A model generated the notes under the pieces. That model did no database searches. It was not told the origin of the DNA and saw only the letters and a program-made list of their open reading frames with translations. Below, one piece after another: positions 3,640 to 62,398 of a stretch of 64,000 nt of DNA; the stretch's first letter is position 1, and the number at the start of each line of letters is the position of its first letter. The DNA comes from a virus, in IMG/VR virus record IMGVR_UViG_3300037851_000757, positions 714 through 64,713 of that record. The stretch is one strand, 5' to 3'. Both the position numbers and the translations under genes were made by a program.

Positions 3640-4547
3640 AAAACCTCCAGCAATGCCGAATGCTTGTAGAGATTATCGAGAGCCTGTTGTTTCAGACTGT
3701 CTAAAACAACCCCCGATTTACAGGCTTCCCAAATAGACTGTATTCTTTTCCACAGGCCTATCTGAAATCCCTCAGAAATAGTGTTTCGATGAGACGCCAC
3801 TCTTATTACTGGAAACTGTCCTCCTCCCCTACAGCAAAGTTGGTGAACGGTTGTTAGAAATTCAGAGCCGACAGGGGTCCCAAGTATCCAAGAGTAAATG
3901 CTTAGTTGCGTCGCCCATGATTTATCAACATCTTCTAAAGGAAACGAAGAGACCATCAGCCCGTACCTCATTTTGGGCATCACGTCTTTATGGAAGCCCC
4001 GACGCTCGCCAGCATCATAAAGCTCCATGTACCCTTTTCGAGGAGAGGTAGTCTTAGAAGACATATACCCATTGACTTTCCAATCATGAACGATCTTACA
4101 CCCCGCCCGATTCTTGTAAAAAATATCAGGCTTTCCTAAAAGTACGACCCCGGCTTCCTCCTTTGTGTGCGCCACGCGATTCTCGATTTGAAACTCAAAA
4201 CGAGGCGTATCTTCCGCTCCTTGTAAGTCAAGCAAGAGATCTGCCAATGCCCCGGATTTCCGGTAGCACTCAAAAGCCCAGGCTCCATTTTGCATCGCCC
4301 AGTCTCTATTATGGCTCTCTACTTGATTTTCGAAAATCTCAACAAAGTCGAAACCGCGTAAGCTACCAAATAGAGAGCGCGTTAAAAAGCTCTTGACATA
4401 GGCATCAAAAGCAGCTCCAATAGCCATTGCTTGAGTTTGAGGAGTCCGAGGCGGACGAAAATCTGCAAGATACTGTAAATAAAATGCTTCTCGATCATCC
4501 TCCCATAACATAATTGCTGTGGGTGACAGGTAACGAATTTCCTTCAT
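3636..4547 (-). CDS. PD-(D/E)XK nuclease-family exonuclease
   Basis: YLSPTAI...C/D-x-FYLQY-type N-terminus, LLGKPD...IVHDWK catalytic pattern and QLSIY motif. Confidence 0.75.
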   Translation of the reverse strand: MKEIRYLSPTAIMLWEDDREAFYLQYLADFRPPRTPQTQAMAIGAAFDAYVKSFLTRSLFGSLRGFDFVEIFENQVESHNRDWAMQNGAWAFECYRKSGALADLLLDLQGAEDTPRFEFQIENRVAHTKEEAGVVLLGKPDIFYKNRAGCKIVHDWKVNGYMSSKTTSPRKGYMELYDAGERRGFHKDVMPKMRYGLMVSSFPLEDVDKSWATQLSIYSWILGTPVGSEFLTTVHQLCCRGGGQFPVIRVASHRNTISEGFQIGLWKRIQSIWEACKSGVVLDSLKQQALDNLYKHSALLEVL

Positions 4548-4834
4548 TTTATTCTCCTCCGAAGAATTTCAAGTTGTTCCTCCGCTTCCCCTATTCCTTT
4601 CTTTATCTGCTTCTTCAAGATTCCGAGTTCCGACTCTTCAATTTGTCGATTTACAGAATCAAGACGAGCAAGCAGGTTCATAATATGTTGCCAATGAGAC
4701 TTTAGTTCTGCTGCCCCTATATGCCCTTTGCAGATGTAACTCCCAGGCTCCAGATAGATCTCTGCTTCCTCACTTCCACAAAGAGCGCACAAAAAAGAAG
4801 TTTTTAGTTTGTCGATTTTTTGTTCGTTGTCCAT
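4544..4834 (-). CDS. Hypothetical protein with a Cys/His Zn-finger-like segment and a coiled coil
   Basis: CALC...CKGH followed by heptad-rich sequence. Confidence 0.6.
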   Translation of the reverse strand: MDNEQKIDKLKTSFLCALCGSEEAEIYLEPGSYICKGHIGAAELKSHWQHIMNLLARLDSVNRQIEESELGILKKQIKKGIGEAEEQLEILRRRIK

Positions 4835-5390
4835 CCAAGGTCTCCCGAATCTTATATTTCTTTAAGTGTTCGATAATTTCAAACCATTGTGTGTTGATTT
4901 CGATAATCAGTTTTTCTACCTTCCGTAGCTTCACCCCCATTCCCTGGAGAACTGCATATTCTCCATAGTCAACATCAATTTTTATATAGTCTGGACCAGC
5001 AAGAGGAATATGGTCCCCTCGATAAACGAGCACTTTACCTTGTCCGGTCCCGACTACACCCCCGCTTCTCCCTGCTTCATTCTGGTGAGTAAATGCCTGT
5101 ATTTCTGTTCGCTCCCCTAAAGCTACTGATAAACACTCAACCTGTTCTTCCATATTATTGATTTTAACATTATAGCAAAGAGCTTCATAATTCTTGAGAT
5201 CAGGTTCAAAAGCTACAACTTTCACACCCCGTAACGCTGCATATATCGAATAAATGCCGATATTTGCACCAACGTCCCAGAAAATTTTCTTGGGCTTCAG
5301 GCTGTTTAGCCACGCGATTGTTTCGGGTTCTTTTGTGTAGAGAGTTTCAAGCCTCCACCGCTCCCATTCATTTGATGTCCGAATCTTCAT
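4770..5390 (-). CDS. FkbM-family SAM-dependent methyltransferase
   Basis: FWDVGANIGIYS, VVAFEPD, IKIDVDYGEYAVLQG and LIIE motifs. Confidence 0.85.
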   Translation of the reverse strand: MKIRTSNEWERWRLETLYTKEPETIAWLNSLKPKKIFWDVGANIGIYSIYAALRGVKVVAFEPDLKNYEALCYNVKINNMEEQVECLSVALGERTEIQAFTHQNEAGRSGGVVGTGQGKVLVYRGDHIPLAGPDYIKIDVDYGEYAVLQGMGVKLRKVEKLIIEINTQWFEIIEHLKKYKIRETLDGQRTKNRQTKNFFFVRSLWK

Positions 5391-5813: not shown

Positions 5814-6268
5814 TAGTCACACACCCATTCCATAATTTCTGCATATTTCCCAGTTCCACGTTGACGGCATCCACCACCTGTTCTCATTTGAACTTCAATA
5901 ACAAGTTGATATCCAACATCTTCAGGATAAGTATAATACCAGTAAATATGATCCCTCATTTTGGCTGGATACTCTGTTTCTTTTAATCCTTCTTCTTCAT
6001 AAAGGATTTCGTCAATCAAAATTAGAGCTTCTCGAAGAGGATGTTTTCCTTCATCCGATCTTAAAGAAACAGTAACATGGGTCGCGCCAGCATGATAGCT
6101 AATATGAGCAGTCCCAGACTCAAACTCCTCATATTTTTTAGCAACTAAGGTTGCCAGATTATAGAGCCTTCCAATACCAATAAGAGCCTGTCTCTCCTCT
6201 CGATGACTCTCTAAAATTCTTTTTTGAAGTTCAGCGTAATCTGGATTTCTCATTTTTCTTTCCTCCAA
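5813..6268 (-). CDS. Hypothetical protein
   Basis: Operon packing; GGAGG lies near the second Met. Confidence 0.6.
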   Translation of the reverse strand: MEERKMRNPDYAELQKRILESHREERQALIGIGRLYNLATLVAKKYEEFESGTAHISYHAGATHVTVSLRSDEGKHPLREALILIDEILYEEEGLKETEYPAKMRDHIYWYYTYPEDVGYQLVIEVQMRTGGGCRQRGTGKYAEIMEWVCD

Positions 6269-6428
6269 GAAGAAATAGAATCAATCCAATGAATAAAGCT
6301 TGAGAAGCAAGTAGTGGGTAGCTGTACCAAGCATCAATGATAGATAAATCAAGGTAATGGTAAAGGGCTGTCACCCCCCAAAAATTTAAGGTAAAAACTA
6401 TCCCACCAATCAATAATTTTTCTACCAT
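6231..6428 (-). CDS. Small two-TM membrane protein
   Basis: Two hydrophobic segments. Confidence 0.55.
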   Translation of the reverse strand: MVEKLLIGGIVFTLNFWGVTALYHYLDLSIIDAWYSYPLLASQALFIGLILFLLGGKKNEKSRLR

Positions 6429-19616: not shown

Positions 19617-19859
19617 CTAACAATCAAGCACTATATGGCAATTTTCTTCATACTGAGAACACTGTTGTCTTTCAGGGTCTCCTTGTGAAACAGGATCTCC
19701 TTCTCTCCGAATCGTCCAGCCAGAATTAATTCCAGTAGGGTTCACTCGATTTGCGAAATCCATAACCTGTTCATCGGTATCAGTTTTGGGAACACAAACC
19801 TGTATAGAAAAAACTCCTTGTATTATCACTTCTCTATTCATATCGCCCCCAATAAGCAA
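19617..19859 (-). CDS. Small Cys-containing hypothetical protein
   Basis: Operon packing; the start is probably the second Met. Confidence 0.6.
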   Translation of the reverse strand: MLIGGDMNREVIIQGVFSIQVCVPKTDTDEQVMDFANRVNPTGINSGWTIRREGDPVSQGDPERQQCSQYEENCHIVLDC

Positions 19860-20292
19860 TCATTTTTTCTTGCTTCTCTGTATCTTTTAACTCCACTGGC
19901 CACCAATATGGTGCAGAAACATCAATATCAGTCCAATTAAATTTTTTATAATAATCCGGGAGTTTCCGCATCAAATTGCATTTATGTGATTTATGCAATC
20001 GTTCATCCCCTAACCAGGGTGGAAAAAATATTTTGATTGGAACTTCATAAAATAACATATCATTATCAAAACCTCGGGACACCCATTCATGAATAATACA
20101 ATTTGTATAGTATTTTAAACAGTCCTCCCATCCCTGCCACATCCTTACTACAACATGATTGTGCCAACGATTTTGAGGATTTTTTAAAGCATTTAAAATT
20201 TGCATTGATTCTACACGCTGTTTTCCTAATCGTCTATAATCTAAGATAGTAGCACACTTTTCGAAGTCTGGGTCTGGTAAAAAAGTTTGCAT
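19834..20292 (-). CDS. denV: Pyrimidine-dimer DNA glycosylase (DenV-like)
   Basis: MQTFLP...LDYRRLGKQRVE..QIL, H..V.MW, PPWLG, HKSHKCNL.RK. Confidence 0.8.
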   Translation of the reverse strand: MQTFLPDPDFEKCATILDYRRLGKQRVESMQILNALKNPQNRWHNHVVVRMWQGWEDCLKYYTNCIIHEWVSRGFDNDMLFYEVPIKIFFPPWLGDERLHKSHKCNLMRKLPDYYKKFNWTDIDVSAPYWWPVELKDTEKQEKMIAYWGRYE

Positions 20293-27420: not shown

Positions 27421-28304
27421 CTGATTTGATGAATCTTTTTAATGACCTTGATAGACAGACTTCTGAAAAAGATCCAAAAGATAGAATTTTACGTGCTCCT
27501 TTTGGGTATCCTGGTGGTAAAACAAGAAGCCTTGCAAATATTATAAAACATCTTCCATACAAACCTATTTATGTAGAACCTTTTGGAGGATCTGCCTCTC
27601 TTTTATTGGCTCGACAACCTGTAAAATTAGAGGTTTTCAATGATCGGTATGCTGGAGTTGTTGCTTTTTATCGTTGTCTTCGGCATCCGGAAAAATATAA
27701 ACAGCTTATAGATTATTTGGAACTTACCGTCCATTCGCGGGAAGATTTTATTGATGCAAAACAAACTTGGTGTGATGAATCTGATGATGTGATTCGGGCC
27801 GCTAAGTGGTATTATATGATTAGCTATAGTTTTGGGTCACTCGGTAGAAATTTTGGGCGTTCAATAAGTATGAATGGAGTCTTAGCCGGAAAAATTACTA
27901 ATAAATTAAAATATTTTCCACTTATTCATAGTCGTTTACAAAAAGTTCAAATTGAAAATCAAGATTGGAAGGATTGCCTCCATGATTACGATTCTAAAGA
28001 TACTGTATTCTATATTGACCCTCCTTATATTGATGCCTATCCTGGTACTTATGAAATTGAACTTAATAAAAAATCCCACATCGATCTCATTGGTACGATC
28101 TTTCATCTTAAGGGATTTGTGGCCTTAAGCGGATACAGTAATCCTATTTATGAAAATCGAGACTGGGATGCTCGATACGCTTGGGATTCTTTTGTTAGTA
28201 TAGATCCTTGTGCATTTACCGAAACAAATTACAAAGAAAATTTAAAATGTTCTGTTAAAAGACAAAAGGCAGAGGAGATTTTATGGATCAAAGAAGTCCA
28301 TTAA
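27417..28304 (+). CDS. dam: DNA adenine methyltransferase (Dam/D12 class)
   Basis: YPGGK, YVEPFGGSAS, FND, FYIDPPY. Target specificity is not established. Confidence 0.9.
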   Translation: MTDLMNLFNDLDRQTSEKDPKDRILRAPFGYPGGKTRSLANIIKHLPYKPIYVEPFGGSASLLLARQPVKLEVFNDRYAGVVAFYRCLRHPEKYKQLIDYLELTVHSREDFIDAKQTWCDESDDVIRAAKWYYMISYSFGSLGRNFGRSISMNGVLAGKITNKLKYFPLIHSRLQKVQIENQDWKDCLHDYDSKDTVFYIDPPYIDAYPGTYEIELNKKSHIDLIGTIFHLKGFVALSGYSNPIYENRDWDARYAWDSFVSIDPCAFTETNYKENLKCSVKRQKAEEILWIKEVH

Positions 28305-28861
28305 GTCTATCAGACTATGAATGGGCAGCGTCTGAATTAGGCTGTCAACGAGAAGTTATACAAGCTGTTGCTCAAGTAGAATCAATAAAAGATGGGTTCT
28401 TTCCTAATGGCCATCCCAAGATTCTTTTTGAAGGACATATTTTTCACAAATATACTAAAGGTTACTTTGATTTGTCCTATCCGACTCTTTCTTTTCGATC
28501 TTGGACACGAAAATATTATGGCAAAACTTGGAAGATTGAACTATCAAGATTTAATACCGCTCAAATTCTAAATCGTCCAGCAGCTATTTATGCTTCTTCT
28601 TGGGGAAAATTTCAAATAATGGGCTTTAACTGGGGCTGCACCGGATCTAAAAGCGAAGAAGATTTTGTGCGGAACATGAAGGTGAATGAACAAGAACACT
28701 TAAAAGCATTTGTTAGTCTTCTTAAAAGCTGGAAACTTAATCCAGTCTTAGCGTCTTGTGATTGGAGGAGATTTGCAAAAGTCTATAATGGAGCGGGCTA
28801 TGAAGCAAACAACTATCATAAAAAACTTGAAACCGCCTATGAAACGTTGCTCAATTATTGA
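28283..28861 (+). CDS. N-acetylmuramidase-family endolysin (DUF3380-like)
   Basis: AVAQVES..GF...PKILFEGHIF, ASSWGKFQIMGFN, FAKVYNG.GY..NNYHKKL. Confidence 0.9.
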   Translation: MDQRSPLSLSDYEWAASELGCQREVIQAVAQVESIKDGFFPNGHPKILFEGHIFHKYTKGYFDLSYPTLSFRSWTRKYYGKTWKIELSRFNTAQILNRPAAIYASSWGKFQIMGFNWGCTGSKSEEDFVRNMKVNEQEHLKAFVSLLKSWKLNPVLASCDWRRFAKVYNGAGYEANNYHKKLETAYETLLNY

Positions 28862-28973: not shown

Positions 28974-29602
28974 TGGCAAGATCTATGCAGCATTGGAATG
29001 GGCATCTTCTTTGTGCAATTGATACTGAAACGTCTGGTCTTGACCCTTTTTGGCATGAGATTTTGCAAATCTGTATTTTGCCACTTGACTCAAATATAGA
29101 ACCTCTTCAAGATCATTTGCCTTTTTATATTAATCTTATCCCAGAGCATCCTGAACGAGTTTCCCAAGAAGCTCTTAATAAAAATGGATTGGATATGGCC
29201 GAATTGACTTTAAAGGGAATAGATAAGGTCAAGGCTATAGATCTCTTTGAAGACTGGATAAAGCAGTTAAAACTCCCGACAACAAAATATGGAACCCCAA
29301 AACAACTAATGCCACTTGGTCATAACTACAGTTTTGATCGAGCCTTTATTATTTCTTGGCTTGGGAATGATCTCTACAATCAATATTTTAATTATCATCA
29401 TCATGATACGATGATAGCTGCTCACTATTTAAACGATCGAGCTGCTTTCCATGCTGAAAAAGTTCCTTTTAGCAAGACAAACCTTCAATGGCTTTGCACC
29501 ACATTAAATATAAAATCGGAAAGAGCACATACAGCTCTTTCCGATTGTGTCTCAACTGCTCAGGTCTATAAGAAATTACTCGCTCGCGGCTTGATTGCAT
29601 GA
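28961..29602 (+). CDS. DEDDh 3'-5' exonuclease
   Basis: IDTETSGL, GHNYSFD, DT, HTALSD. Confidence 0.9.
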   Translation: MGGLMARSMQHWNGHLLCAIDTETSGLDPFWHEILQICILPLDSNIEPLQDHLPFYINLIPEHPERVSQEALNKNGLDMAELTLKGIDKVKAIDLFEDWIKQLKLPTTKYGTPKQLMPLGHNYSFDRAFIISWLGNDLYNQYFNYHHHDTMIAAHYLNDRAAFHAEKVPFSKTNLQWLCTTLNIKSERAHTALSDCVSTAQVYKKLLARGLIA

Positions 29603-29830
29603 TGCACAAACTATCTGAGTGACCTCTTTATCGAACAGACTACATTCTATAATAGTTTCTATTTTACCGCAAGAGAGCTGCTCAGATGTTAAAAATCGAT
29701 AAGAGCATTCTGGAATAACAGGATGGGCCAGATACTTATTTTTAAAATCTAAAACATACCCAGGCGGAGGTTCTGGATTCCCGCGCATAGGTGCAAAGCA
29801 GTCACCGTTTGGAAGCTTCCGCCATAGCAT
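29576..29830 (-). CDS. Small Cys-rich protein, last gene of the late arm
   Basis: C..R, CG, EC, CASC; convergent with the exonuclease. Confidence 0.65.
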   Translation of the reverse strand: MLWRKLPNGDCFAPMRGNPEPPPGYVLDFKNKYLAHPVIPECSYRFLTSEQLSCGKIETIIECSLFDKEVTQIVCASCNQAASE

Positions 29831-30101
29831 CTTTGTGTCTCCTTACAAGACGATCTTTTCTAAGTCTTACAATTTCATTAATTTGACCATTTGTTAATCT
29901 TTCTTCAAGTTCTTTAATTCCTATTGAATTTGCCCCTTCACAGATTTCTGTAATCTTGTGTAAAAGAACATCATCAAGCTTTGTTGGGGTCAATTTTACA
30001 ATGGCTTTTGCGGCTCCAAGACCAGAACCACCTCCAAGAAGAAAGACAATACACCCTGTTAAAAATTGATGCTTATCTATCCAATCTAAAAGAAAATCCA
30101 T
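29802..30101 (-). CDS. Holin-like membrane protein
   Basis: N-terminal TM segment, then IVKLTPTKLDD seen in small holins, and a basic C-terminus. Confidence 0.5.
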   Translation of the reverse strand: MDFLLDWIDKHQFLTGCIVFLLGGGSGLGAAKAIVKLTPTKLDDVLLHKITEICEGANSIGIKELEERLTNGQINEIVRLRKDRLVRRHKDAMAEASKR

Positions 30102-30110
30102 AGTCTCTCC

Positions 30111-30434
30111 TTAGATTTTATGGCATCTATTACAGTCAACAGTTTTTTCAGCGTGTTTTTTGTGATATTTTGTTTGCCATAAAATAAAAACTTTTTTAGT
30201 TGACCCTGAATGACAACTTCCGCAACTATCAAATGCATTTTCACGATTAGGAGTTTTAATTGGTACTTGATCTATCCAACATTTAGGACAAAGTGAGTCC
30301 CATAATGGTGTAAATTCATTTTGAAAACAACGTAACTTACCGGCTTCTTCAATACAAGGGATGAATCCACTTTGAAGAGCTGCAACTGAGGAAGCAAAGA
30401 AAATTAAGATGGGAATAATAATAATTTTTTTCAC
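30111..30434 (-). CDS. Exported di-heme c-type cytochrome
   Basis: Sec-type signal MKKIIIIPILIFFASSVAA; CGSCH and CNRCH; extra His pair YHKKH; additional CPKCW; GGAG plus GTG start. Confidence 0.75.
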   Translation of the reverse strand: MKKIIIIPILIFFASSVAALQSGFIPCIEEAGKLRCFQNEFTPLWDSLCPKCWIDQVPIKTPNRENAFDSCGSCHSGSTKKVFILWQTKYHKKHAEKTVDCNRCHKI

Positions 30435-30444
30435 TTTAGTCTCC

Positions 30445-30885
30445 TTATTTTATCCAAGGTAAAACTTTTGTTCTGTCTTCCTGAATTTGATATTTTAAAT
30501 AGCATCTATCTTTTAGAGAAATTGGTGTAGAAATTGTCTGGAACTTTATTAAATCATCACCAATTATAATAACTTCAGGTCCGAGATTTTCTTGTATAAA
30601 TTTAATTTTGGGCAAAAGATAATTAGCGAGTTCTTGATAAGTTCCAGATGTATCAATAATCTTTTCAGCCCCATCAAGAAACTTTGAAATTTCTTTTTTC
30701 CCAATATTTTCAAGTTTGCTGATTTCATAAATCGATAATTTAATAATTGTGTTAGTTGTTTGTAGATTTGGGAAAAATTGTTCAATATAACTTCCATCGG
30801 GGAATTCTTTACAAATGCTAACAGGTTTTGTTGGAGCTATACATCCAACAATAATTACTAAAAAAAGAAGAAGATATAATTTCAT
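30445..30885 (-). CDS. Lipoprotein
   Basis: MKLYLLLFLVIIVG-C lipobox-like signal; AGGAG SD. Confidence 0.7.
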   Translation of the reverse strand: MKLYLLLFLVIIVGCIAPTKPVSICKEFPDGSYIEQFFPNLQTTNTIIKLSIYEISKLENIGKKEISKFLDGAEKIIDTSGTYQELANYLLPKIKFIQENLGPEVIIIGDDLIKFQTISTPISLKDRCYLKYQIQEDRTKVLPWIK

Positions 30886-30894
30886 GATAGGCTC

Positions 30895-31659
30895 CTATTC
30901 AATTATAACATTAGAAGGATTACTCATTCTTGTTTGAATTAACCAGGGTTGGACTGCTGCATGAGTTTTGCTTGTCCCATAAATAGACTCTTTCAGAACT
31001 CCATCAATTTTTCCTACTGCCTTAACTTCAAAACGAACAGAGTCTTCTTCAGAAAGAATTTTAATAGGAATTTCTTTTTGAGCAGTTTCCCCTTGAAAAA
31101 TTACAGTAGAAGTTTTTTCTTTGACTCCTCGAAACTTGAAAGAAGGTTCTGTTACATTACTTTGTTCCCAATTCCAAGCGAATGTTATAAGTTCTCCAAT
31201 CTTCTTTTTATATAAAAGAATCTCAAGTGGGGTCAATGAAAGCTCATTAGTTAAAAGAAACATATCAACTTTAGTGTTTGATTCCCGTCCTGAAATTGTA
31301 AGGGTATGCTCTCCCTCCGGAAGGTCAAACTCACTGTCATTAAAACGATCCCAAGCAAAAGTTCCACGAGTTCCAACTGGTGTCATCCAGACATATTTTG
31401 TGCCAGTATTCATTGTTACAAAAACAGAGTTTTCTGCGTCAGAGGCTCTTTCGAATCGTCCCCAAAGGGCATACTTTCCAGCAGTTTTTATATTGATTTT
31501 AAAAATCGCAGTACCGGCATTTGAAGCAGTAGCCCAAATAAAAGAATCGCCAGCGGAGAACCCAGTAAGCTGAGCAGATTCAGCCTCAAAGTAAATCTGC
31601 TCAGCTTTACACGTTCCCCCAAATGCCAACAGCGCAAGAAGGAGAATTAGTTTTTTCAT
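30895..31659 (-). CDS. Exported protein with a CBM6/CBM35-like jelly-roll and an Fn3-like domain
   Basis: Signal peptide; FEAES; YALWGR; LPEGEHTLTISGRE.NTKVDMFLLT; C-terminal FAWNW...FEVKAV. Confidence 0.65.
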   Translation of the reverse strand: MKKLILLLALLAFGGTCKAEQIYFEAESAQLTGFSAGDSFIWATASNAGTAIFKINIKTAGKYALWGRFERASDAENSVFVTMNTGTKYVWMTPVGTRGTFAWDRFNDSEFDLPEGEHTLTISGRESNTKVDMFLLTNELSLTPLEILLYKKKIGELITFAWNWEQSNVTEPSFKFRGVKEKTSTVIFQGETAQKEIPIKILSEEDSVRFEVKAVGKIDGVLKESIYGTSKTHAAVQPWLIQTRMSNPSNVIIE

Positions 31660-32060
31660 TGGACAATTACCTCAATAATGACATCAAAAGGAAGCCCAAC
31701 ATTTGAAAATGGAATAACAAATTCAAGATAATCAAGTCCTGTAACAGTTTTTCCCTGAACACGATCTGTCATGTTCCCATTTTTTGAGACAGCCGCAATT
31801 GAAAAATATCTTTTGACTGTTTCTCCAGGCGTCCCCGTTACTGTAACTTGTTTTGAAACTGTAAGAGAAGTTTGTCCAGTGTATGGAACAACTTCTATTT
31901 TCGTGGGGGTAACAGTCGGGGAATCTGCCATGTAAAGAACCCACTCTTTTAGATTCACCAAATCTTCTGTGGGCTGTTTCCAAGACATTTTGACTGTTTC
32001 AGCAAAAACGACAGATGCCATGAGACAAAGAACCAGACTAATTAGACAGCTTTTTTTCAT
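31656..32060 (-). CDS. Exported Fn3/Ig-like protein
   Basis: Signal MKKSCLISLVLCLMASVVFA; MSWKQP...YFSIAAVSKNGN. Confidence 0.65.
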   Translation of the reverse strand: MKKSCLISLVLCLMASVVFAETVKMSWKQPTEDLVNLKEWVLYMADSPTVTPTKIEVVPYTGQTSLTVSKQVTVTGTPGETVKRYFSIAAVSKNGNMTDRVQGKTVTGLDYLEFVIPFSNVGLPFDVIIEVIVQ

Positions 32061-32469
32061 TTACTCCTCCATTGAGTTTGTGGAGTGTCTCCACTTTGTT
32101 TTCAAGCCGCTCCAAACGAGCGTCTTGTCGTTGATTCTCACGATCAATAAGACCGCCAAAAAGTTTTAAATTTTCATTTGTATGGGTTAGTTGCGTTTGG
32201 ACAATTTGGACACTTCCAATAAGTTGTGTAACCTGATTAGAAAGTGCTCCCATTTCTCCTTTCATTGTCCAAAGAAACATTAGTAAAAGAATACATAGTC
32301 CCCCCAGGCCACTGATTATAAGATAAAATGTCAAGGTTGTCGGCCTTGCTTTTACCCCGCTCCAGATGTCGTCTAATTTCGCATCAACGGGCTTACAAAT
32401 TGTTTCACAGGCCATTGGGGGTGTCGTCCTCCTTTCGTGGTGTCTTCTGTTTGCATCCTCGCCTTCCAT
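32038..32469 (-). CDS. Single-TM coiled-coil membrane protein (i-spanin- or holin-like topology)
   Basis: TM FYLIISGLGGLCILLLMFLW followed by a long heptad region. Confidence 0.6.
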   Translation of the reverse strand: MEGEDANRRHHERRTTPPMACETICKPVDAKLDDIWSGVKARPTTLTFYLIISGLGGLCILLLMFLWTMKGEMGALSNQVTQLIGSVQIVQTQLTHTNENLKLFGGLIDRENQRQDARLERLENKVETLHKLNGGVNEKKLSN

Positions 32470-42586: not shown

Positions 42587-43129
42587 TTAAAAATTTTCTC
42601 CATATAAATATCCGCCTTCTTCCATTTCAAAATGAGCTGCTTCTGCTTCTGATAAAAGCTGATAAAAATAATCATTTTCAAGAGTTGGATAATAGTTACT
42701 CTGTCCTGGTACTGGTGTTATAGTATTATAATCAAGACTTCCATAGCATCCACCAACTTGATATGAAATAAGAGTAGCAAGATACTCAAATTCTATATCA
42801 TACCAGCAAAGATCTCTGATCTCGAGAATCTCAATTACAGGATTTATAATAAAGCCGGTAAGAGCAACCCCATAGCTTTCTGAAAGGGTCACAGAAAGAC
42901 CAATAGACGCTCTATATAGTGCTTCAAAATCATTTACTTGGGCTTCCTTTAATCCTGTAAAAGAATATTGTCTTTTCTCTATAACCGGCCAAAGAGGATC
43001 TTTAAAAATCTTAGGGAGTCCACCTTTTAGATTTCGGACAACTGCTCCTGACTCAAATCGAAGAATATCCCCTAAATCTGCACTTACAAGAGAAACACTG
43101 TAAGTACTATATGTTAGGCTAATTGGCAA
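42587..43129 (-). CDS. Distal tail-like protein
   Basis: Directly follows the tape measure; GGAGG precedes TTG 43129 (track start 43213). Confidence 0.55.
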   Translation of the reverse strand: MPISLTYSTYSVSLVSADLGDILRFESGAVVRNLKGGLPKIFKDPLWPVIEKRQYSFTGLKEAQVNDFEALYRASIGLSVTLSESYGVALTGFIINPVIEILEIRDLCWYDIEFEYLATLISYQVGGCYGSLDYNTITPVPGQSNYYPTLENDYFYQLLSEAEAAHFEMEEGGYLYGENF

Positions 43130-46100
43130 AGGAAAGCCTCCCAAGTCTAATTTGTTTTTTGATGCTTTTGCCAAGTCTAAGGACATTAACTTCTGGAGAA
43201 GATGAAACTCCATTAAAGTTCATGTCCCCAAAATTATAAGTTGTACTGCCAGAGTTAAATCGCCTGACTCCAGAGTTCATTGCAACAAGCTGACTATAGA
43301 ATTTTCTTGAAGCTGCTGGATTCATGACCATTTCATCAGGAGATAACCAAGCCAACTGGGTGTCAATTCCTGCACTTCTACCACTGGCATACCGAGGATT
43401 TCCTTTTGAATCCATAGTAATAGAGGGAGAGGTAATCAGATTTGATAAGATTCCTCTAACTTCACCAATAGCAGTTCTGGCACTTTCAACATATCTCAAC
43501 CAAATTTGTCGGTTTCCTTCAATTTCTTCAATTTGCCGATTCCGGACATCAATCAAAACCTGTTGCTGAGCAGCTAAAGAAGCATCTTTAAGACGAAGGT
43601 TAACAAGACTCTCTATCTGGAGTTTTTCAAAAGCTATTTGAGCGTCTTTATAAAATTGTGTTCCATATTTTTTGCTATACTCCTCCATTTTCTTAAAAGC
43701 TGTACTTTGAGCCTCTGTGACTTTTTGGAGTTCTTCTGGAGAAGTAATTTTAGTTAAATCTGTCCAAGAAGCTTTTGTTACAATATTTGACAAATCTTTA
43801 ATGATAGAAAGTTCATCTTCTAAATATTGCTGCCTCTGCTTTTCAGTAGTAAGACGAGAAGCTGCCACTCCCTGCATCATTCGATCATATCTGGCAATTT
43901 CTTCAAGATAGTATCTATAATACCCTTCACCACTTTTAATTGGCGACCATTTTTTTGCGTCAATTAATTGATCTGAGAAATCAATTTGTTCTTTAACAAG
44001 CTTTTTTAATTCAGCAGAGATTGCTTCAAAGCGTTCTTTATTAGTCGCTTTTGCAGCTTTTGCAAGTTCTTCTTCAAGAAGCCCAACCTGTGCAGCAGTT
44101 GCTTGATATTTTGAAAATAGATCTGGTTCCTTTCGATCATAGCGATCTTTACCAGAGAGACGGCGCTCCATAATATAATTGGTAGCTTCCATCTCTTTAT
44201 TAAAATCTTTTTGTTTCTTTTTTGCAATATCTTCAAGGCGATTAATTTCTTCTCGAACAGTAGATAAACGATCTCGAATAGAATCAATAATCTTTTCTTC
44301 AAATCTTGTTACGGACCCAAGAAAATCTTCATAAGGCTCTTTTTGAAGATTGATCATTTGGGTAAGAAGCCCACGCTCTTCTGCCAAAGATTGCAATTGT
44401 TTTTTTGAAGCATCTTCAACAGCCTTCACGCGGGCGTCATACGCCGTGTTTATATTGAGAAGCTCTCTATCAAGCCACTTTTTTTGGTTATCTGCTGTTG
44501 CTCTATCAATTTTATCAGCTTTTTCTTGCCCAAGTCTAATAATAAATCGAGAAATAAAAACACCTGTCCCAAGGGCAGCAAGTCCTGCTAAAATTGGATT
44601 TAATCCAGCAAGAGCAAAAGTTAAAGCTCCAACAGCAGGGACAGCTGTATAAAAAATAGTATCAGAAAAAGCTTTAACACCAGCAGTAATATTATCAAAA
44701 TTTGCACCAAGACCTGCAACAGTATCAATCATTCTTTTACCGACATCAACGGTAAAGAAATTCTTGATTCGCTCCATCACTACTGCAAGTTGTTTTTCAG
44801 GTTTTTCTGTGATTAGTTTTATTTGATCATTATATGTTTTAACAGCTTCGGTAATGTCTACATAATCTTGCTCAACTTCCTTAAGACTTTTACCAGTAAT
44901 GGACATGACACCTTGCATGGCTCGGAGTCTGCCCATTAATTTTCCTATTTCAGCTGTATCTTCTCCAAATCTATCAGAAAGCAGCGTTAAAAAAGGTAAA
45001 AATCCATATGTCTCAATGGCTGCTTGGCCAGTTTCAACACCAAGTTCTTTAAACCATTTTGACATTTCCTCTGTTGGTTTGATTAATTTAAGAAAAACGT
45101 TCCGAAGATACGTGGCAGTCGTATTATATTTGATACCTTGTCGAGAAGCAACTGTGATAAGAGACTGGAGTTCGTTTAATTTAACTCCTACTTGTGCAGC
45201 AGGAACAGCTAATTGACCAAAAGTCTGAGCCATTTCAGATGCTTTGACTCGACCAAGGTCAATAGTTGCAAAGAAAGAAGCCGCAATCTCATTTGCTCTT
45301 GATGTATCTAATTTAAAAGCGTTAATTGTGGCATCAAGAAGTTGGACAGCTTCAGTAGTAGTTGAGACAGAAGTTACTGCAAACTGATTTACTTCTTGTA
45401 GATACCGAAAAGTATCTGCACCTTCAACAATCTGATCTGAAATTGCTTCATAGCCTGCTGCAACTTGATCAAGAAGTGGACCTCCCCAAGTATCAGAAAG
45501 TTTCCTAAAACCATCTACCCATTGATTAACACCTAAAGGAAATTTTGAAGATATAGTCTGGACTTCACCTATTCTGATTCCAAGTTCTATAACAGTCCCC
45601 ATTCCTTCCCGAATGGTTCTTATTATAGAAGAAACAGCTTGGTGAATTAATTGAACGCCAATAAGTCTGGTAAAACTTTTCCAAGAAAGAGTAACTTCAT
45701 CAAGCGCGCCTTTTAATTTTTTTGTTGACTGTGTGGCTTGCCCCTGTTGAACAGCAACTTTGAAAAAAGCTGCTGCTTGTGCATCAATCTGTTTTGTAAA
45801 AGAAGCTCCAAGTTGTGCTTGAGTATTCTTAACTCTTAGCATGGCAGTTTGGATATCGCTCAAACCACCAACATAAGAACGAATACGATTTTTCCCAATA
45901 TCGTCCCACATCTTAGAGATTTGGGAATAAGCAATATCATGCTGTGCACGAAGTTCTCGAACAGAAGTAATAGCATTTTTGTAGCTAAGAATTTCTTCTG
46001 GGGTTGCCTGTCTTTTAGCAATTTCAGTTCGAGAAATACCTTTTTGAAGAAGTAATGATGTTGCAGAATCAGCCTTTCTTGAAAGTTGCTGTCTCCTTTT

Positions 46101-46787
46101 AAGGGCTGCTTCTTCTTGTGCCGCTGCTTTTGCTTCTTCAAGAGCACGAAGACGTTGTTTTTCCGCAACCTCAGCTTCTGCTTTTGCTTTTGCTAATTGT
46201 TTTCGTGATTCTGCACCAAGCCTCTCTTTTGCAATTAAAACATCTTCAAGGGCATTACGAACTTTTCGCAGAGCACCTGCGTAGGCTTGAGTTTCTCCTC
46301 GTCCAAGTTCTCCCCAAATTTTAGTAATATGTTCTCTTGCAACATTGTGCTGTGCAACGATTTCCCGTAAACGCCCAGCAGCGTTTTTATAGTCAACTTG
46401 CTCTCCACGAGTTGCGCCAAGTTGCCCAATGCCTGCTTGGGTTGTCCCTCGCTGGACAAGATCACCAGCATATCGAGCATTTGTTGAAGCGAGGTCAACT
46501 ATAGCCCTTCTTTGACGCTGAATAGAAGAAGTTGTAGAGTCAGTCTGAGAGGAAAGACGTTGTTGAGCAGAAATTATAGAATCAAAATTTTTAACAACTG
46601 TCCCAAGTGATTTTGCTAAATCAGAAACAGTTTTAGCTGTCTCTGCAAATTTTGTCAGAGTTTTATCAGCACTCTTATTTGTTTTTTCTTGAGCTTTTGC
46701 AACAGTTTCCCACTGTTTTACGAGCTTCTCAAGTTCTTTGAAGACTGCACTAAAATCAGCGGAGGCTTGAGCAGTATCGGTTGCCAT
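43119..46787 (-). CDS. Tape measure protein
   Basis: 1222 aa, Ala-rich helical, with a TP901-like core (AAGYEAISD...ATIDLGRV..SEMAQTFG), downstream of the tail chaperones. Confidence 0.92.
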   Translation of the reverse strand: MATDTAQASADFSAVFKELEKLVKQWETVAKAQEKTNKSADKTLTKFAETAKTVSDLAKSLGTVVKNFDSIISAQQRLSSQTDSTTSSIQRQRRAIVDLASTNARYAGDLVQRGTTQAGIGQLGATRGEQVDYKNAAGRLREIVAQHNVAREHITKIWGELGRGETQAYAGALRKVRNALEDVLIAKERLGAESRKQLAKAKAEAEVAEKQRLRALEEAKAAAQEEAALKRRQQLSRKADSATSLLLQKGISRTEIAKRQATPEEILSYKNAITSVRELRAQHDIAYSQISKMWDDIGKNRIRSYVGGLSDIQTAMLRVKNTQAQLGASFTKQIDAQAAAFFKVAVQQGQATQSTKKLKGALDEVTLSWKSFTRLIGVQLIHQAVSSIIRTIREGMGTVIELGIRIGEVQTISSKFPLGVNQWVDGFRKLSDTWGGPLLDQVAAGYEAISDQIVEGADTFRYLQEVNQFAVTSVSTTTEAVQLLDATINAFKLDTSRANEIAASFFATIDLGRVKASEMAQTFGQLAVPAAQVGVKLNELQSLITVASRQGIKYNTTATYLRNVFLKLIKPTEEMSKWFKELGVETGQAAIETYGFLPFLTLLSDRFGEDTAEIGKLMGRLRAMQGVMSITGKSLKEVEQDYVDITEAVKTYNDQIKLITEKPEKQLAVVMERIKNFFTVDVGKRMIDTVAGLGANFDNITAGVKAFSDTIFYTAVPAVGALTFALAGLNPILAGLAALGTGVFISRFIIRLGQEKADKIDRATADNQKKWLDRELLNINTAYDARVKAVEDASKKQLQSLAEERGLLTQMINLQKEPYEDFLGSVTRFEEKIIDSIRDRLSTVREEINRLEDIAKKKQKDFNKEMEATNYIMERRLSGKDRYDRKEPDLFSKYQATAAQVGLLEEELAKAAKATNKERFEAISAELKKLVKEQIDFSDQLIDAKKWSPIKSGEGYYRYYLEEIARYDRMMQGVAASRLTTEKQRQQYLEDELSIIKDLSNIVTKASWTDLTKITSPEELQKVTEAQSTAFKKMEEYSKKYGTQFYKDAQIAFEKLQIESLVNLRLKDASLAAQQQVLIDVRNRQIEEIEGNRQIWLRYVESARTAIGEVRGILSNLITSPSITMDSKGNPRYASGRSAGIDTQLAWLSPDEMVMNPAASRKFYSQLVAMNSGVRRFNSGSTTYNFGDMNFNGVSSSPEVNVLRLGKSIKKQIRLGRLSFAN

Positions 46788-52379: not shown

Positions 52380-54054
52380 TTGATGCTCCTCTGCGGTCTT
52401 TATTGAGCTTATCTATTTCATCGTCATTTAGATTTTGCAAATCTCTTACGCCTCTATTAGAAACAGCAGATTGTGCCTTTGCGATTCTTGCTGCTCGATC
52501 TGCATGATCTTTTTTGGCTTTTTCTGCTTCTCCTTTTGGGTAGCCCAGAGCTTCTGAAGCAGTTGCATCCGAAACAAGACCTTCTTTGTGATCTTCTCTT
52601 ATTATTTCATGATCCATTGTGGTAACTTGAGCAGTCAATATTTCTTCATAAATTACTTCCATCGTTTCTTGTCTAACTTTAGTTTCAAGAGCAGTAATGG
52701 CAATCTGTCTATCAATTTCTTTTTGAAAAGTAATAGAAGGAACAACTGTTTTTAATTCTTTTAACTTTTTAATTTCATCAAGACGCTCTGCATCTGATCG
52801 AAGACTATATTTTTTTGGGTATTTAATAACAGCCGCACTTTTTCCAGATTCATACATTGTCCAGATTTCTGCAATCTCTCGTTCAACTCTTTCCAACTCC
52901 ATACCAATATAACTTAGCCCTGCTTCCAAACCTTTTTCATCTGTTAAATCTGCACTCTGAGAACCAGCAGGCCGTTCTAAATTCTTTAAAGAAAGGTTAA
53001 CCAATTTTCGAATATCTTCTTTTAACTGATCACTTTTTTTCATGCTTGCTAAAAGCGGCTCTGGAGATGGATTTATAAAATCAGGTCGCTCTAACCCTTT
53101 TGCATATTTTCGACCATGTGTGACACCTATTTTAATATCAGATCTGCCTTGTGCATCAGCAGTCTCTCTTGCTGGAACCCCTTCTTCTGTGTCACTAAGT
53201 TGTAATTTTGCAAAATTTTCCATTTGAGGATTAAATTGCTCAGTATAAAATGGAAAATTACTTTTTAGTGAGTATCCAATATCAGAACTTTCTAAATTAA
53301 GTAGAGCAATTTGATAATCAGAGACATCAGTTAAAAGGCTCTGACTTAGAGTTGCAATTACTAAAGGAATTCGAGGGAGATCTATTTTAAGGGCTTCTCC
53401 TTCTTGCTCTCCTTTTGAATTATAAATAGTTAAAGAGACACCATTTTCTTCAAGAATAATGTGCCTATATTTTATTTCTCTTCCTTTTACAAGATGTGTA
53501 ACAGGGTCAACAACATCTATATAATCTTTTAAAAGGACTGCTACTAAGATGTTGTCTACATAAGTCCAAGATTGGATATCTTCTGCTGGATAGTAATAAA
53601 GATAAGGAGAAAATTGTTTTGACTGTAATTTGGTTGTTCCAATATCTGATGCTTTGTCAACAAAGATTCCAACTTTTGCCATTGGAAGCAGTTCTGGTAA
53701 AACTTGAGTTCCGATAAAAGTTGTCATAGTCATACCAGCTCTGTCAACACCACCAGTGTCTCCATAAACAGCTTTTTGATAAGAAGAAGAACCACCGATT
53801 CGCTGAATCTCAACGAGTCGTTGATATATTGAATTTTTAATATCAATAATAGCTGCTTTTGCATGAGCTGGACAATAAGAAATATCTCGTCTTGTTACAA
53901 AATCTGTTGCTTCTTCTCTATGAGAAAATTTTTTCAAATATTTATTAACAAAATCCTTGCCACCTACAAAAGTTGCCCGATATTTTTCCCAATTTGAAAC
54001 ACTTGAAAGATAATCAGGGTGAAAAGTTTCCGTAATTTTTGATTTCCGAGCCAT
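52366..54054 (-). CDS. Portal protein
   Basis: HPDY...W.KYR..F.GG...YL N-terminus; directly downstream of TerL. Confidence 0.85.
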   Translation of the reverse strand: MARKSKITETFHPDYLSSVSNWEKYRATFVGGKDFVNKYLKKFSHREEATDFVTRRDISYCPAHAKAAIIDIKNSIYQRLVEIQRIGGSSSYQKAVYGDTGGVDRAGMTMTTFIGTQVLPELLPMAKVGIFVDKASDIGTTKLQSKQFSPYLYYYPAEDIQSWTYVDNILVAVLLKDYIDVVDPVTHLVKGREIKYRHIILEENGVSLTIYNSKGEQEGEALKIDLPRIPLVIATLSQSLLTDVSDYQIALLNLESSDIGYSLKSNFPFYTEQFNPQMENFAKLQLSDTEEGVPARETADAQGRSDIKIGVTHGRKYAKGLERPDFINPSPEPLLASMKKSDQLKEDIRKLVNLSLKNLERPAGSQSADLTDEKGLEAGLSYIGMELERVEREIAEIWTMYESGKSAAVIKYPKKYSLRSDAERLDEIKKLKELKTVVPSITFQKEIDRQIAITALETKVRQETMEVIYEEILTAQVTTMDHEIIREDHKEGLVSDATASEALGYPKGEAEKAKKDHADRAARIAKAQSAVSNRGVRDLQNLNDDEIDKLNKDRRGASNDDD

Positions 54055-55715
54055 TATAAGATTCTCCCAATATTATAATTTACTGCTAAATTTGCCGCCA
54101 ATGGCAAAGCAATTTCAGCATAATTACCACTATGAGCAAAATGGTCAGAATCGTGCTCACTCTTAACATAGCGACCAACAGGATTTCCATCTTGATCTTT
54201 TTCATAGACACGGACAAGTGATTTAATATGATCTTTATATTCTGTGCTTAAATCAATTGGGAGAATAATTTTATTTTTACGGTATCTTGAAAATCTTAAA
54301 TCAAGCCAAGAAGTTCTATCCACAGTAATTGTATATTCTTCCTCACTGTGGATATGAATTTGTTTTGTATTGCCAACTTTATTCCCATAATAGCAGAGTT
54401 TTACTCTCCCAAAATGTCTTTGAGCAAACTCTAAGGCTTTTCTTTTTTCCGGGTGTGCATCAATCACACAAAAAGCAATCCCAAATCTTCTCATTAAGTC
54501 ATCAAGATTTTCAAAATCTAAAGTCTTCCCTTCATTTATTAATTTACAAGTAGCAGCTAAGCTAATATCTGTTTCTAAATCTTTACCTCCAAAAAACCAT
54601 TGATCGATTTCAAAATGTAACCATTTTCCAACATCTACTCCCATTGTTAAAAGAGCATCTTTTGGAACAATTCCTATTTTTTGATGATTTCCAAGACAAG
54701 CCAATATGTCAGTATCAGTAATCCGTGCTCCTTCAACAATATGAGTCAATCCAAGCTTTGAATTATAAAATTCCTGTTCATCTGCTGGATTACTTTTAGA
54801 TTTAAGATAGAGACTTGCAATTTCATAAGGCTTTACAGTCATGGAATATAACTGGCTAATATGATACCCATAAATGTCTCTATCATCATATGTTGGAATC
54901 CATTTGGCATTTGGTGGCGCTAAAAAATTAATCTTATCTTCATGTTCTAATATCTTTTTACATTCTTTACAAATTAGATGGCTTTCTCGAATTTTTTGAT
55001 CTGTTACCTCCTCTGCTGTTATGATTAAACAATCTGGAAAAATTAAATGGGTATATTTTGAACAATGTGGACAACGAAAATAATAAAGATGTTGTGTACT
55101 GATTTTGAAATCTGCATTTATTCCGTAATTATCTATGGTTGGAGTTGAAATTTGAAAAAATTGTTTTTCAATTTGTCCAGAAGCCCGTTCAAAGATCATT
55201 GGGACATTCTCTTGGACCATTTCATCTTTTTCATCAATAATTGCCAAGCCAACAGGAATTGATTTAAGTTGACTCCGACTTCTTGAACCGCGAATATATA
55301 AATTTGCACTTCCAGCCCTTTTATGTCCGATGTTTTTAACATCTGTAAAAAGACTTTTTAAATGTGGACTCATCTCTAACGCAGAGTCAAATCGAGCTGT
55401 TGAAAAGTCACTGGCGTCTGGTGTCGTTGCTGGTAGCACATATAGAACACTTGTTCGATCAACATCTATGGCTTTAAAAGATCTATTTAAAGCGACTTCC
55501 GTATATCCCATTTGGGCAGCTTTCTGCCCAATAATATTTTCAGCAACACAATCATGCAAATCAATTAACCAAGGATGATACTTAAATGTCCAAGGACCAG
55601 GAAAAGGTTTCCCCATTATCCTATAAGTCGAAGCATATCTTGAGACAGTTGTTACTGCTTTTCTCTGAAGGCCAGAAACAACTCTTTCATATAAAAGTTT
55701 TTGGAGAGAGTGCAT
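54054..55715 (-). CDS. terL: Terminase large subunit (lambda GpA-like)
   Basis: QKAAQMGYTE Walker A, IIDEKD Walker B, ISTPT, CPHC..CKEC, GVDVG, DHFAH. Confidence 0.92.
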   Translation of the reverse strand: MHSLQKLLYERVVSGLQRKAVTTVSRYASTYRIMGKPFPGPWTFKYHPWLIDLHDCVAENIIGQKAAQMGYTEVALNRSFKAIDVDRTSVLYVLPATTPDASDFSTARFDSALEMSPHLKSLFTDVKNIGHKRAGSANLYIRGSRSRSQLKSIPVGLAIIDEKDEMVQENVPMIFERASGQIEKQFFQISTPTIDNYGINADFKISTQHLYYFRCPHCSKYTHLIFPDCLIITAEEVTDQKIRESHLICKECKKILEHEDKINFLAPPNAKWIPTYDDRDIYGYHISQLYSMTVKPYEIASLYLKSKSNPADEQEFYNSKLGLTHIVEGARITDTDILACLGNHQKIGIVPKDALLTMGVDVGKWLHFEIDQWFFGGKDLETDISLAATCKLINEGKTLDFENLDDLMRRFGIAFCVIDAHPEKRKALEFAQRHFGRVKLCYYGNKVGNTKQIHIHSEEEYTITVDRTSWLDLRFSRYRKNKIILPIDLSTEYKDHIKSLVRVYEKDQDGNPVGRYVKSEHDSDHFAHSGNYAEIALPLAANLAVNYNIGRIL

Positions 55716-61924: not shown

Positions 61925-62398
61925 TTAATTTCCTCTCATTGGGATAAAATCAAAAACAATCTTGAACTTTGCACCATTAACAGAGTTTCCAGTAATTTTC
62001 AACCAGAGAGAATTATACACTGGAGCGTCGAAAACAGAACCGCCAGCCAGAGGCCGAAAATGATTATTTGCAGCAGCATCGATGGTGTTCGCGCCCGCGC
62101 CGCCCAAAAGATCGTAAGCAACATCAATAGGCTCGACAGTGAAATCACTATCAAGAGTAGGAGCTGGAGATCCAAAGTATGTGTGCAAAGATCTAAGAGC
62201 ATATCCCTCCTGAAAAGTCAAGACTTTTTGTAGACTGTCAGCAAGCTGAGTATCTGCGACAGTCCCATCAGTGTGTGCTGTTACGTTAGCAGTTACTTGC
62301 ACCCCTCCACCTGTCAATTTAGTAGAGGTGTAAATAACTTCACTGGCCGCAAAACAGATTTGTGGAATCAAAAAAAGAAGAAAAAAAAGTCTTTTCAT
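61925..62398 (-). CDS. Protein with a signal-peptide-like N-terminus and a beta-rich body
   Basis: MKRLFFLLFLIPQICFA-A. Confidence 0.65.
   Translation of the reverse strand: MKRLFFLLFLIPQICFAASEVIYTSTKLTGGGVQVTANVTAHTDGTVADTQLADSLQKVLTFQEGYALRSLHTYFGSPAPTLDSDFTVEPIDVAYDLLGGAGANTIDAAANNHFRPLAGGSVFDAPVYNSLWLKITGNSVNGAKFKIVFDFIPMRGN

Follow-up and report, generated by a model that had tools for sequence, protein, structure and literature searches.

The late operon of an uncultured phage ends in a tight run of genes for membrane and exported proteins, which raises the question of whether these proteins act together and, if not, how they came to be neighbours. The phage is represented by IMG/VR record IMGVR_UViG_3300037851_000757; the window (the whole stretch of DNA analysed, 64,000 nt, positions 714 to 64,713) is nearly the whole of this 64,750-bp virus record, and direct terminal repeats are present. 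A first-pass annotation had suggested that the run combines lysis genes with the parts of one envelope complex acting in exclusion, adhesion or lysis control.

Comparison with other phages points to a mosaic instead, and we consider the mosaic reading as a whole very probable. Taken jointly with a spanin reading of two of the genes, it is still probable: a lysis-type backbone (tmcc143, lipo146, hol99 and cys84) would have been split by two independent insertions, one of a gene pair for secreted proteins (sp134 and cbm254) and one of a small cytochrome c gene (cyt107). That tmcc143 and lipo146 make up a two-component spanin has, judged by topology and position, slightly better than an even chance. 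In the direction of transcription, the run reads:

32038-32469, minus strand: tmcc143, 143 aa, one transmembrane (TM) segment plus a coiled coil; i-spanin-like backbone gene
31656-32060, minus strand: sp134, Fn3-like protein with a predicted Sec signal; gene A of the pair; its start overlaps the end of tmcc143 by 23 nt
30895-31659, minus strand: cbm254, predicted Sec signal, carbohydrate-binding module (CBM)-like domain plus a second sandwich; gene B of the pair; ATGA overlap (4 nt) with sp134
30445-30885, minus strand: lipo146, predicted lipoprotein, lipobox IVGC with Cys15; o-spanin or exclusion-type candidate
30111-30434, minus strand: cyt107, GTG start; di-haem c-type cytochrome with a predicted Sec signal
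29802-30101, minus strand: hol99, 99 aa, one TM segment over residues 13-35; holin-like backbone gene
29576-29830, minus strand: cys84, Cys-rich cytoplasmic protein; true last gene of the operon; overlaps hol99 by 29 nt

The gene run and its counterparts in related phages

The run closes the late operon at its 3' end and is preceded by the genes for a 799-aa tail-tip protein and for a 365-aa open reading frame (ORF) that we call g365. The first-pass annotation had listed six ORFs here, for a TM plus coiled-coil protein, two signal-peptide proteins, a lipoprotein, a cytochrome and a holin-like protein. All six are present on the minus strand where it had placed them, and its Fn3-like, CBM-like and cytochrome assignments hold in AlphaFold2 (AF2) and Foldseek comparisons, HMMER and Pfam searches and haem motifs. 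Its view that the run closes the late operon is correct as to position; the last gene is cys84 and not hol99, and the run from 32469 down to 29576 comprises seven minus-strand genes, not six. Tight coupling was borne out, with an AGGAG-type Shine-Dalgarno site 4-10 nt upstream of every one of the seven genes and with junctions that are either overlaps (23, 4 and 29 nt) or gaps of 9-12 nt. As the annotation had proposed, the lysis-type genes are mixed with genes for exported proteins that play no part in lysis. The base composition had been said to match that of the phage, which is roughly so: the mean GC content of genes in the genome is 0.384 +/- 0.050 and the cassette genes span 0.277-0.427, the minimum of 0.277 belonging to lipo146, a low outlier. 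A scan within the run for a private promoter or terminator serving the inserted genes gave nothing above shuffle expectation, and the gaps measure at most 12 nt. Because there is no room for a promoter of its own, the secreted pair would be expressed late, with the virion and lysis proteins.

Signal peptides were judged by rules for the n-, h- and c-regions (small residues at -3 and -1) and by conservation in homologues of 36-65% identity. Lipobox calls were rule-based, TM topology was inferred from sequence, and coiled coils were recognised by a/d heptad spacing. PADLOC and NCBIfam returned nothing significant for any cassette protein.

For comparison, 50 related IMG/VR contigs were retrieved by TerL, of which 25 longer records were studied; the tail-tip gene was located in 17 of these 25, the DNA downstream of it was compared, and whole-record searches covered the 25 clade members. 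The closest relative, L069 (TerL 78%), has homologues of g365, tmcc143 (34% identity, E 1e-19), hol99 (41% identity, E 1e-20) and cys84 (53%), and no homologue of sp134, cbm254, lipo146 or cyt107. Its genes follow each other in the order tmcc131, a 116-aa lipoprotein (4-bp overlap), a 58-aa ORF, hol89 and cys93. In L070 (TerL 70%) the gene for a true holin (phrog_1299, E 6e-10) immediately precedes one for a homologue of the L069 lipoprotein, and the 58-aa ORF and the Cys-rich gene come next. In L072, L073 and L078, a different family of TM protein, with a weak holin match in L078 (phrog_1350, E 9e-4), and a different family of lipoprotein (...GC followed by SIG) precede the Cys-rich gene. L071 (record G004) encodes, directly after the tail-tip gene and thus at the same locus as the cassette, a 226-aa protein (4420-5100, plus strand) with the layout of a u-spanin: an N-terminal lipobox, ALCTGC, and a C-terminal TM segment at 155-173. 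The most widely conserved gene of the run is cys84, which has tblastn matches in seven relatives.

Whole-record searches found cbm254, cyt107 and lipo146 in 0/25 clade records. A single distant match to sp134 was obtained, in G024 (TerL 69%), away from the cassette locus. On this comparison the clade keeps lysis-type membrane and lipoprotein genes and the Cys-rich gene at the locus, and the window phage carries extras. The only linkages that survive are those within the backbone (TM/coiled-coil, lipoprotein, holin-like and Cys-rich genes) and that between sp134 and cbm254. The g365 protein, the 799-aa tail-tip protein and a 383-aa protease had no relatives in single-protein pattern scans of IMG/VR.

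The secreted pair and the cytochrome

The predicted signal of sp134 is MKKSCLISLVLCLMASVVFA, followed by ETVK. Public annotation begins the gene at Met14 (121 aa) and loses this signal. The upstream ATG is preceded by a GGAGGAG site and the hydrophobic N-terminus is kept in homologues; the gene call is corrected here, with the signal peptide restored. The AF2 model of sp134 (predicted local distance difference test, pLDDT, 76.5) shows a beta-sandwich over residues 17-115 and leaves a conserved C-terminal strand, PFDVIIEVIVQ, unplaced. Foldseek searches against the PDB and BFVD gave only generic FnIII-level matches, the nearest neighbours including Fn3 domains of phage tail proteins.

cbm254 has the predicted signal MKKLILLLALLAFGGTCKA, followed by EQ. 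Residues ~20-145 are predicted to form a CBM6/35-like domain related to GH115_C, with 1350 HMMER matches, 293 of them at E <= 1e-10; PF17829 (GH115_C) is carried by 8 of the 10 matches scanned, and cbm254 itself lies below all Pfam cut-offs. The AF2 model of this domain matches the CBM6 and CBM35 structures 8j3x (CBM6E) and 2w46 (CBM35) with Foldseek E values of 7e-5 to 7e-4, and also 3zm8; the Atlas gave matches as well. A second beta-sandwich spans ~150-254, of which the model shows ~150-225 as a sandwich and leaves the conserved C-terminal tail unplaced. An IMG/VR pattern scan and alignment scans of viral and metagenome contigs gave no relatives of cbm254, and a word-index protein search returned only cbm254 itself.

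Homologues of sp134 are encoded by two other phages, P0156 (53% identity) on L092 and L093, and P0157 (41% identity) on L094, L095 and L096; alignment scans with sp134 found nothing in viral contigs and, in metagenome contigs, only another copy of the L094 phage and one spurious match. The terminase and capsid types of both phages differ from those of the window phage. In both, the sp134 homologue immediately follows the genes for scaffold and major head protein (phrog_206 and phrog_247 in L092) and is overlapped by the next gene, which encodes a signal-peptide protein homologous to the C-terminal domain of cbm254. This gene B product is 292 aa long in L092, with the CBM inserted into the sandwich, and 134 aa long in L094, with no CBM. 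When the neighbourhoods in L092 and L094 are compared with the window, the pair alone matches clearly; the portal of L092 is weakly similar. Full-length cbm254 homologues, P0013 and P0016 (36% identity), each follow a gene of 150 or 166 aa with a 4-bp overlap and carry a Cys-rich insert; they are known from gene tables alone, in which the upstream genes are not confirmed as sp134 homologues. The signal features (n-, h- and c-regions, small residues at -3 and -1) are kept in all homologues of the pair at 36-53% identity. The conserved unit thus appears to be a gene of the sp134 family (A) followed by one for a sandwich protein in which the CBM is optional (B), mobile between phage backbones and between positions.

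The clade match in G024 (G024:C1:14469-15182, equivalent to L100:3470-4183, minus strand) is a signal-bearing 237-aa protein with two Fn3 domains, the first of which resembles sp134 (hidden Markov model E 2e-9). Its gene lies upstream of a gene for more than 1000 aa. Signal-bearing Fn3 proteins therefore seem to recur at other positions in the clade.

Multimer modelling, which the first-pass annotation had recommended as a check on its complex, was run on mature sp134 and cbm254 residues 146-254 with our own alignments, for which the calibration counts hold only roughly. The score of 0.60 is weak support, to be set against 0.00 for the best of three controls; contacts agreed to at least 80% between runs, and the partners had pLDDT values of at least 77. 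The pass mark is reached by 58 of 80 solved complexes and by 2 of 110 mismatches, and passes at scores of 0.60 or less comprise only 7 of the 80 solved complexes and both passing mismatches. Combined with the prior from translational coupling and co-inheritance, the prediction makes it likely but unproven that sp134 and cbm254 form a heterodimer via the sp134 sandwich and the C-terminal sandwich of cbm254. As the pair is late, exported and, in most versions, equipped with a lectin-type domain, binding to an envelope glycan at or after lysis is favoured as a role, which we put forward as speculation.

The third inserted gene, cyt107, encodes a predicted signal ending in ...SSVAA, followed by LQ, and the junction (AA followed by LQSGF) is conserved. 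There are two haem motifs, CGSCH (residue 71) and CNRCH (residue 101); CGSCH is present in every homologue and CNRCH in the two full-length ones, P0005 stopping before it. Four further Cys residues are invariant and form two pairs, one of them as CPxCW, and extra His residues are conserved. Profile matches to Cytochrom_c3_2 and cytochrome c7 are sub-threshold (PF14537, 22.3 bits with a cut-off of 25; NF043011, 20.4 with a cut-off of 120), and the cyt107 profile found no relative in the PDB.

Homologues of cyt107 at 62-71% identity occur in other phages, those at 62-65% in two contexts: within a DnaB/SNF2/DUF4326/primase replication module (L086-L088), and between genes for large ART-PolyVal proteins near an Amidase_2 gene (L089-L091). 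In neither place is the gene accompanied by one for a lipoprotein or a holin-like protein. No bacterial homologue turned up when 185k species genomes were scanned with the alignment, so that a host origin could not be traced, and the family has so far been found only in phage contigs. By all appearances, cyt107 is a single-gene insertion common to at least two other phage backbones. The cytochrome would need the host cytochrome c maturation system for its own maturation, and this implies a diderm, respiring host. A TerL scan of species genomes gave only two contigs binned into metagenome-assembled genomes (one Cloacimonadota, one Pontiellaceae), which is too weak to name a host.

Elsewhere in the window, a Pyr_excise-type (endonuclease V-like) gene at 19834-20292 (minus strand) is 55% identical to L086-L088:344-844. 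The phage in question, which also has the cytochrome homologue P0003, is otherwise unrelated, and the match hints at a shared host or gene pool.

Spanin and holin candidates and the rival explanations

tmcc143 has no signal peptide. It begins with a charged, cytoplasmic N-terminal domain of ~45 aa with the conserved pattern CxxxC...PVDxKLDxIW, which is followed by a single hydrophobic span at ~46-68; the inferred topology, N-in/C-out, fits the single TM domain of an i-spanin. Beyond the membrane, 3-4-3-4 hydrophobic spacing marks heptads at 74-106 and 119-132, with a Gly- and charge-rich linker between them. The Rz-like PHROG matches are weak (phrog_89 and phrog_739, E 0.014 and 0.034), and a sequence search of the PDB gave no relative. 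We also looked for an embedded Rz1-like ORF within tmcc143 and found none. sp134, whose start overlaps the end of tmcc143, was considered as an overlapped o-spanin and rejected, as it has no lipobox and its homologues lack a Cys there.

lipo146 has the predicted signal MKLYLLLFLVIIVGC, followed by IAP; by rule, Ile at +2 is not an inner-membrane retention residue. A six-frame lipobox scan identified it as the sole credible lipoprotein in the window. The mature part of 131 aa is not Pro-rich. Family (including PHROG), PDB sequence, clade and ESM Atlas searches gave no relatives, and the ESM Atlas model is poor (pLDDT 0.42). In the window, tmcc143 and lipo146 are 1.15 kb apart with two genes between them, and so lack the adjacency typical of spanin genes.

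hol99 consists of an acidic N-terminal tail, the TM segment, a KLTPTKLDD motif and a strongly basic, helical C-terminal third. It fits the holin shape of a small membrane protein with a charged C-terminus, and it neighbours the spanin-like genes. Pfam, NCBIfam and PHROG gave no match to a holin family, only the unknown-function families phrog_9685 and phrog_402 (E 5e-4), and all that the Atlas yielded were viral clusters without names, scoring below 0.9. An LTGC sequence in hol99 was rejected as a lipobox because no n- or h-region lies ahead of it.

cys84 has no family match in Pfam, PHROG or NCBIfam. Its own family, with the motif ...PNGD..AP.RG.PP.PP.GY..., has members in L071 (5100-5921), L072, L073, L078, L081 and L082, among others; in L071 the homologue is fused to an S-adenosylmethionine (SAM)-methyltransferase-like domain. 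In several relatives the Cys-rich gene is followed by glycosyltransferase and radical-SAM-like genes, both of which the window phage lacks.

From these features we propose the following scheme. The clade would place its lysis-type genes, here tmcc143, lipo146, hol99 and cys84, at the 3' end of the late (tail) operon. The soluble endolysin calls for a holin; at this locus hol99 is the candidate for making the hole, after which the muramidase would degrade the wall. Then tmcc143, read as a type II protein of the inner membrane whose coiled coil lies in the periplasm, and lipo146, read as an outer-membrane lipoprotein, would act as a spanin that fuses or disrupts the outer membrane. The first insertion would have placed the translationally coupled sp134 and cbm254 between the two spanin-like genes. 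The exported pair may mask receptors on the dying cell and its debris, or modulate lysis through wall or outer-membrane breakdown; both roles are speculative. The second insertion would be the exported di-haem cytochrome c gene, apparently hopping alone between unrelated phages. The spanin and holin assignments are favoured because the topology fits, the equivalent genes abut in L069, a u-spanin-type protein (L071) and a real holin (L070) occupy the locus in relatives, lipo146 is the only lipoprotein candidate in six frames, and T5-like phages offer a precedent for a split pair.

A number of points weigh against this scheme. No backbone gene reaches a curated family threshold, and the Rz-like matches of tmcc143 are at chance level when taken alone. 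The conserved cytoplasmic domain of 45 aa is unusual, and the topology of tmcc143 also fits a class III holin or antiholin of the T4 T kind; likewise, the TM and lipoprotein genes of L072, L073 and L078 may be a holin and a lipoprotein, given the phrog_1350 match. lipo146 is large for an o-spanin, deviant in GC and unrelated to the lipoproteins of the relatives, and may be a separate acquisition, for example an exclusion lipoprotein. Most relatives are fragments (CheckV 13-75%), and for this reason absence from them is strong evidence at the syntenic locus and nowhere else. The sp134/cbm254 pair is readable in three DNA contexts only, with two gene tables in addition. The complex score falls in the weak class, in which a pass is wrong more often than right unless the prior is good. 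Finally, the signal peptides are rule-based predictions.

The envelope complex envisaged by the first-pass annotation would join the six proteins, each of them exported or in the membrane, into one machine that spans the periplasm and serves exclusion, adhesion or lysis control. Translational coupling in one run and the predicted export or membrane location of every protein are what such a machine would show, yet the set is linked nowhere else: L069 lacks four of the six, none of the 25 clade records has cbm254, cyt107 or lipo146, and the pair and the cytochrome each occur without the other genes in unrelated phages. Such non-linkage in relatives is the very outcome that the first-pass annotation had named as refuting its idea, and we regard the single machine as highly improbable. 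A role of sp134 and cbm254 as virion-associated accessory or decoration proteins, whose N-termini stay uncleaved or which meet the virion only after lysis, is less improbable while still quite unlikely. Fn3, Ig and CBM domains are common features of decoration on phage capsids and tails, in two other phages the pair comes directly after the genes for scaffold and major head protein, Fn3 domains of tail proteins are among the nearest structural neighbours of sp134, and the signal-bearing double-Fn3 relative in G024 is encoded beside a large structural gene. Tailed-phage virions, however, assemble in the cytoplasm, whereas a canonical n/h/c signal, small residues at -3 and -1 included, is kept by every homologue of the pair even at identities of 36-53%, the Cys-rich insert of P0013 and P0016 suits an oxidising compartment, and the genome position of the module is not fixed. 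It is also unlikely, if a little less so, that the two proteins are an undescribed, horizontally mobile 'secreted lectin' heterodimer, exported late and binding a host surface or periplasmic glycan, which would mask receptors on the dying cell and debris and so spare the progeny, or would decorate virions only after lysis. If this were true, then together with the cytochrome it would point to a pool of exported late accessory genes that freshwater phages with a host group in common exchange with one another.

The rival to the spanin assignment has a better chance than these and is nevertheless rather unlikely. It takes tmcc143 as a class III (T4 T-like) holin or a lysis regulator of the antiholin type, and lipo146 as an independently acquired lipoprotein for receptor blocking or superinfection exclusion, of the T5 Llp or Cor kind, the phage either lacking a spanin or using another outer-membrane disruptor. 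A cytoplasmic domain of 45 aa ahead of the TM segment is atypical for i-spanins, lipo146 is an orphan of deviant GC encoded 1.15 kb from tmcc143, and the L078 TM protein has its weak holin match; moreover, bioRxiv 10.1101/515445 gives ~15% as the share of phages of Gram-negative hosts without spanins. On the other hand, the tmcc homologue of L069 overlaps the lipoprotein gene by 4 bp, a classic spanin arrangement, and a u-spanin-type protein is found at the same locus in L071. The two-segment coiled coil of tmcc143 resembles that of Rz, and the six-frame lipobox scan found no other o-spanin or u-spanin candidate in the genome.

Known systems and genome context

The likeness to two-component spanins (lambda Rz/Rz1 and the 'separated' T4 PseT.3/PseT.2) extends to a type II inner-membrane protein with a two-segment coiled coil, a lipobox lipoprotein without Asp at +2, an adjoining holin-like gene and a nearby soluble endolysin. 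The corresponding genes abut in L069, and a split by an insert has a precedent in the T5-like phages Shivani and phiR201, where ~700 bp with a homing-endonuclease gene separate the spanin pair (Kongari et al., PMC6139136). The window proteins differ in having no significant spanin-family match, in the cytoplasmic N-domain of tmcc143 and in the long, orphan lipoprotein without proline richness, and the insert differs from that in Shivani and phiR201 in being a two-gene module for exported proteins. Late-operon morons (lambda lom and bor, HK97 gp15, T5 llp) are similarly extra genes between conserved neighbours, absent in close relatives, with envelope-targeted products, and located in or beside tail and lysis genes. 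Unlike these, the inserted genes have no room for a private promoter or terminator and would ride on late transcription, the carrier looks virulent-style with its own replisome, and the first insertion is a conserved two-gene pair. No exclusion or serum-resistance type function is known for sp134 and cbm254; the receptor masking or debris blocking proposed for them is likened to that of T5 Llp.

The predicted folds of the pair match CBM6, CBM35 and GH115_C domains, with PF17829 in relatives, and phage Fn3 and Ig-like domains; here they occur as small stand-alone Sec-signal proteins and are not appended to a glycoside hydrolase or virion protein. cyt107 resembles small periplasmic multihaem cytochromes c (class III/c7) in its Sec signal, CXXCH motifs, extra His residues and small size, and is unlike them in having only two haem motifs plus four invariant Cys.

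The kinds of element involved (spanin-like pairs, holin-like genes, morons, CBM and Fn3 domains, small cytochromes c) are thus already known, and the locus reveals no new kind of envelope machine. What appears to be undescribed is the secreted A/B pair as a mobile phage module, inserted inside a spanin-type pair. If our reading is true, accessory genes have here separated the two members of a spanin-type gene pair, and a two-gene secreted Fn3/CBM module and a small cytochrome c move independently among unrelated uncultured phages. Little is understood of phage proteins that are expressed late and exported but serve neither the virion nor lysis. A secreted pair that is conserved and includes a sugar-binding domain is a concrete candidate for work on the ways in which phages manipulate the host envelope or protect their progeny at lysis.

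The phage comes from a freshwater metagenome. Two freshwater DNA runs contain the stretch, of which one may be its source, and no RNA run is listed. PHROG scans assign TerL, portal, major head protein, tape measure and tail protease genes to the minus-strand late operon and identify replication genes in the window. They also place genes for a DNA methyltransferase, the soluble muramidase endolysin and an exonuclease on a plus-strand arm that converges on the late operon. Features outside the run are:

54054-55715, minus strand: TerL (PHROG scan)
43119-46787, minus strand: tape measure (PHROG scan)
28283-28861, plus strand: soluble muramidase-type endolysin (phrog_1224, E 8e-55; phrog_2860, E 2e-50)
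29546-29514, minus strand: terminator-like hairpin 3' of cys84, with a 13-bp stem, 6 GC pairs and a T-rich tail

The muramidase endolysin carries neither a signal nor a signal-arrest-release (SAR) sequence and lies ~1 kb from the cassette. The hairpin sits within the 3' end of the coding sequence of the convergent exonuclease; such sites are no more numerous in the region than expected from shuffling, and it is its position that makes the hairpin plausible as a terminator. cys84 and the exonuclease gene overlap tail-to-tail by 27 bp (window positions 29576-29602).

Two further small proteins were observed in the window. At 61925-62398 (minus strand), among eight genes between the small- and large-terminase genes, lies a gene for a 157-aa protein with a predicted Sec signal, MKRLFFLLFLIPQICFA, followed by ASEV...; it has no family match and is unrelated in sequence to sp134 or cbm254. 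A 65-aa ORF without a family match at 6231-6428 (minus strand), in the early/replication region far from the endolysin, has two predicted TM segments and a short charged C-terminus, a shape like that of a class II holin.

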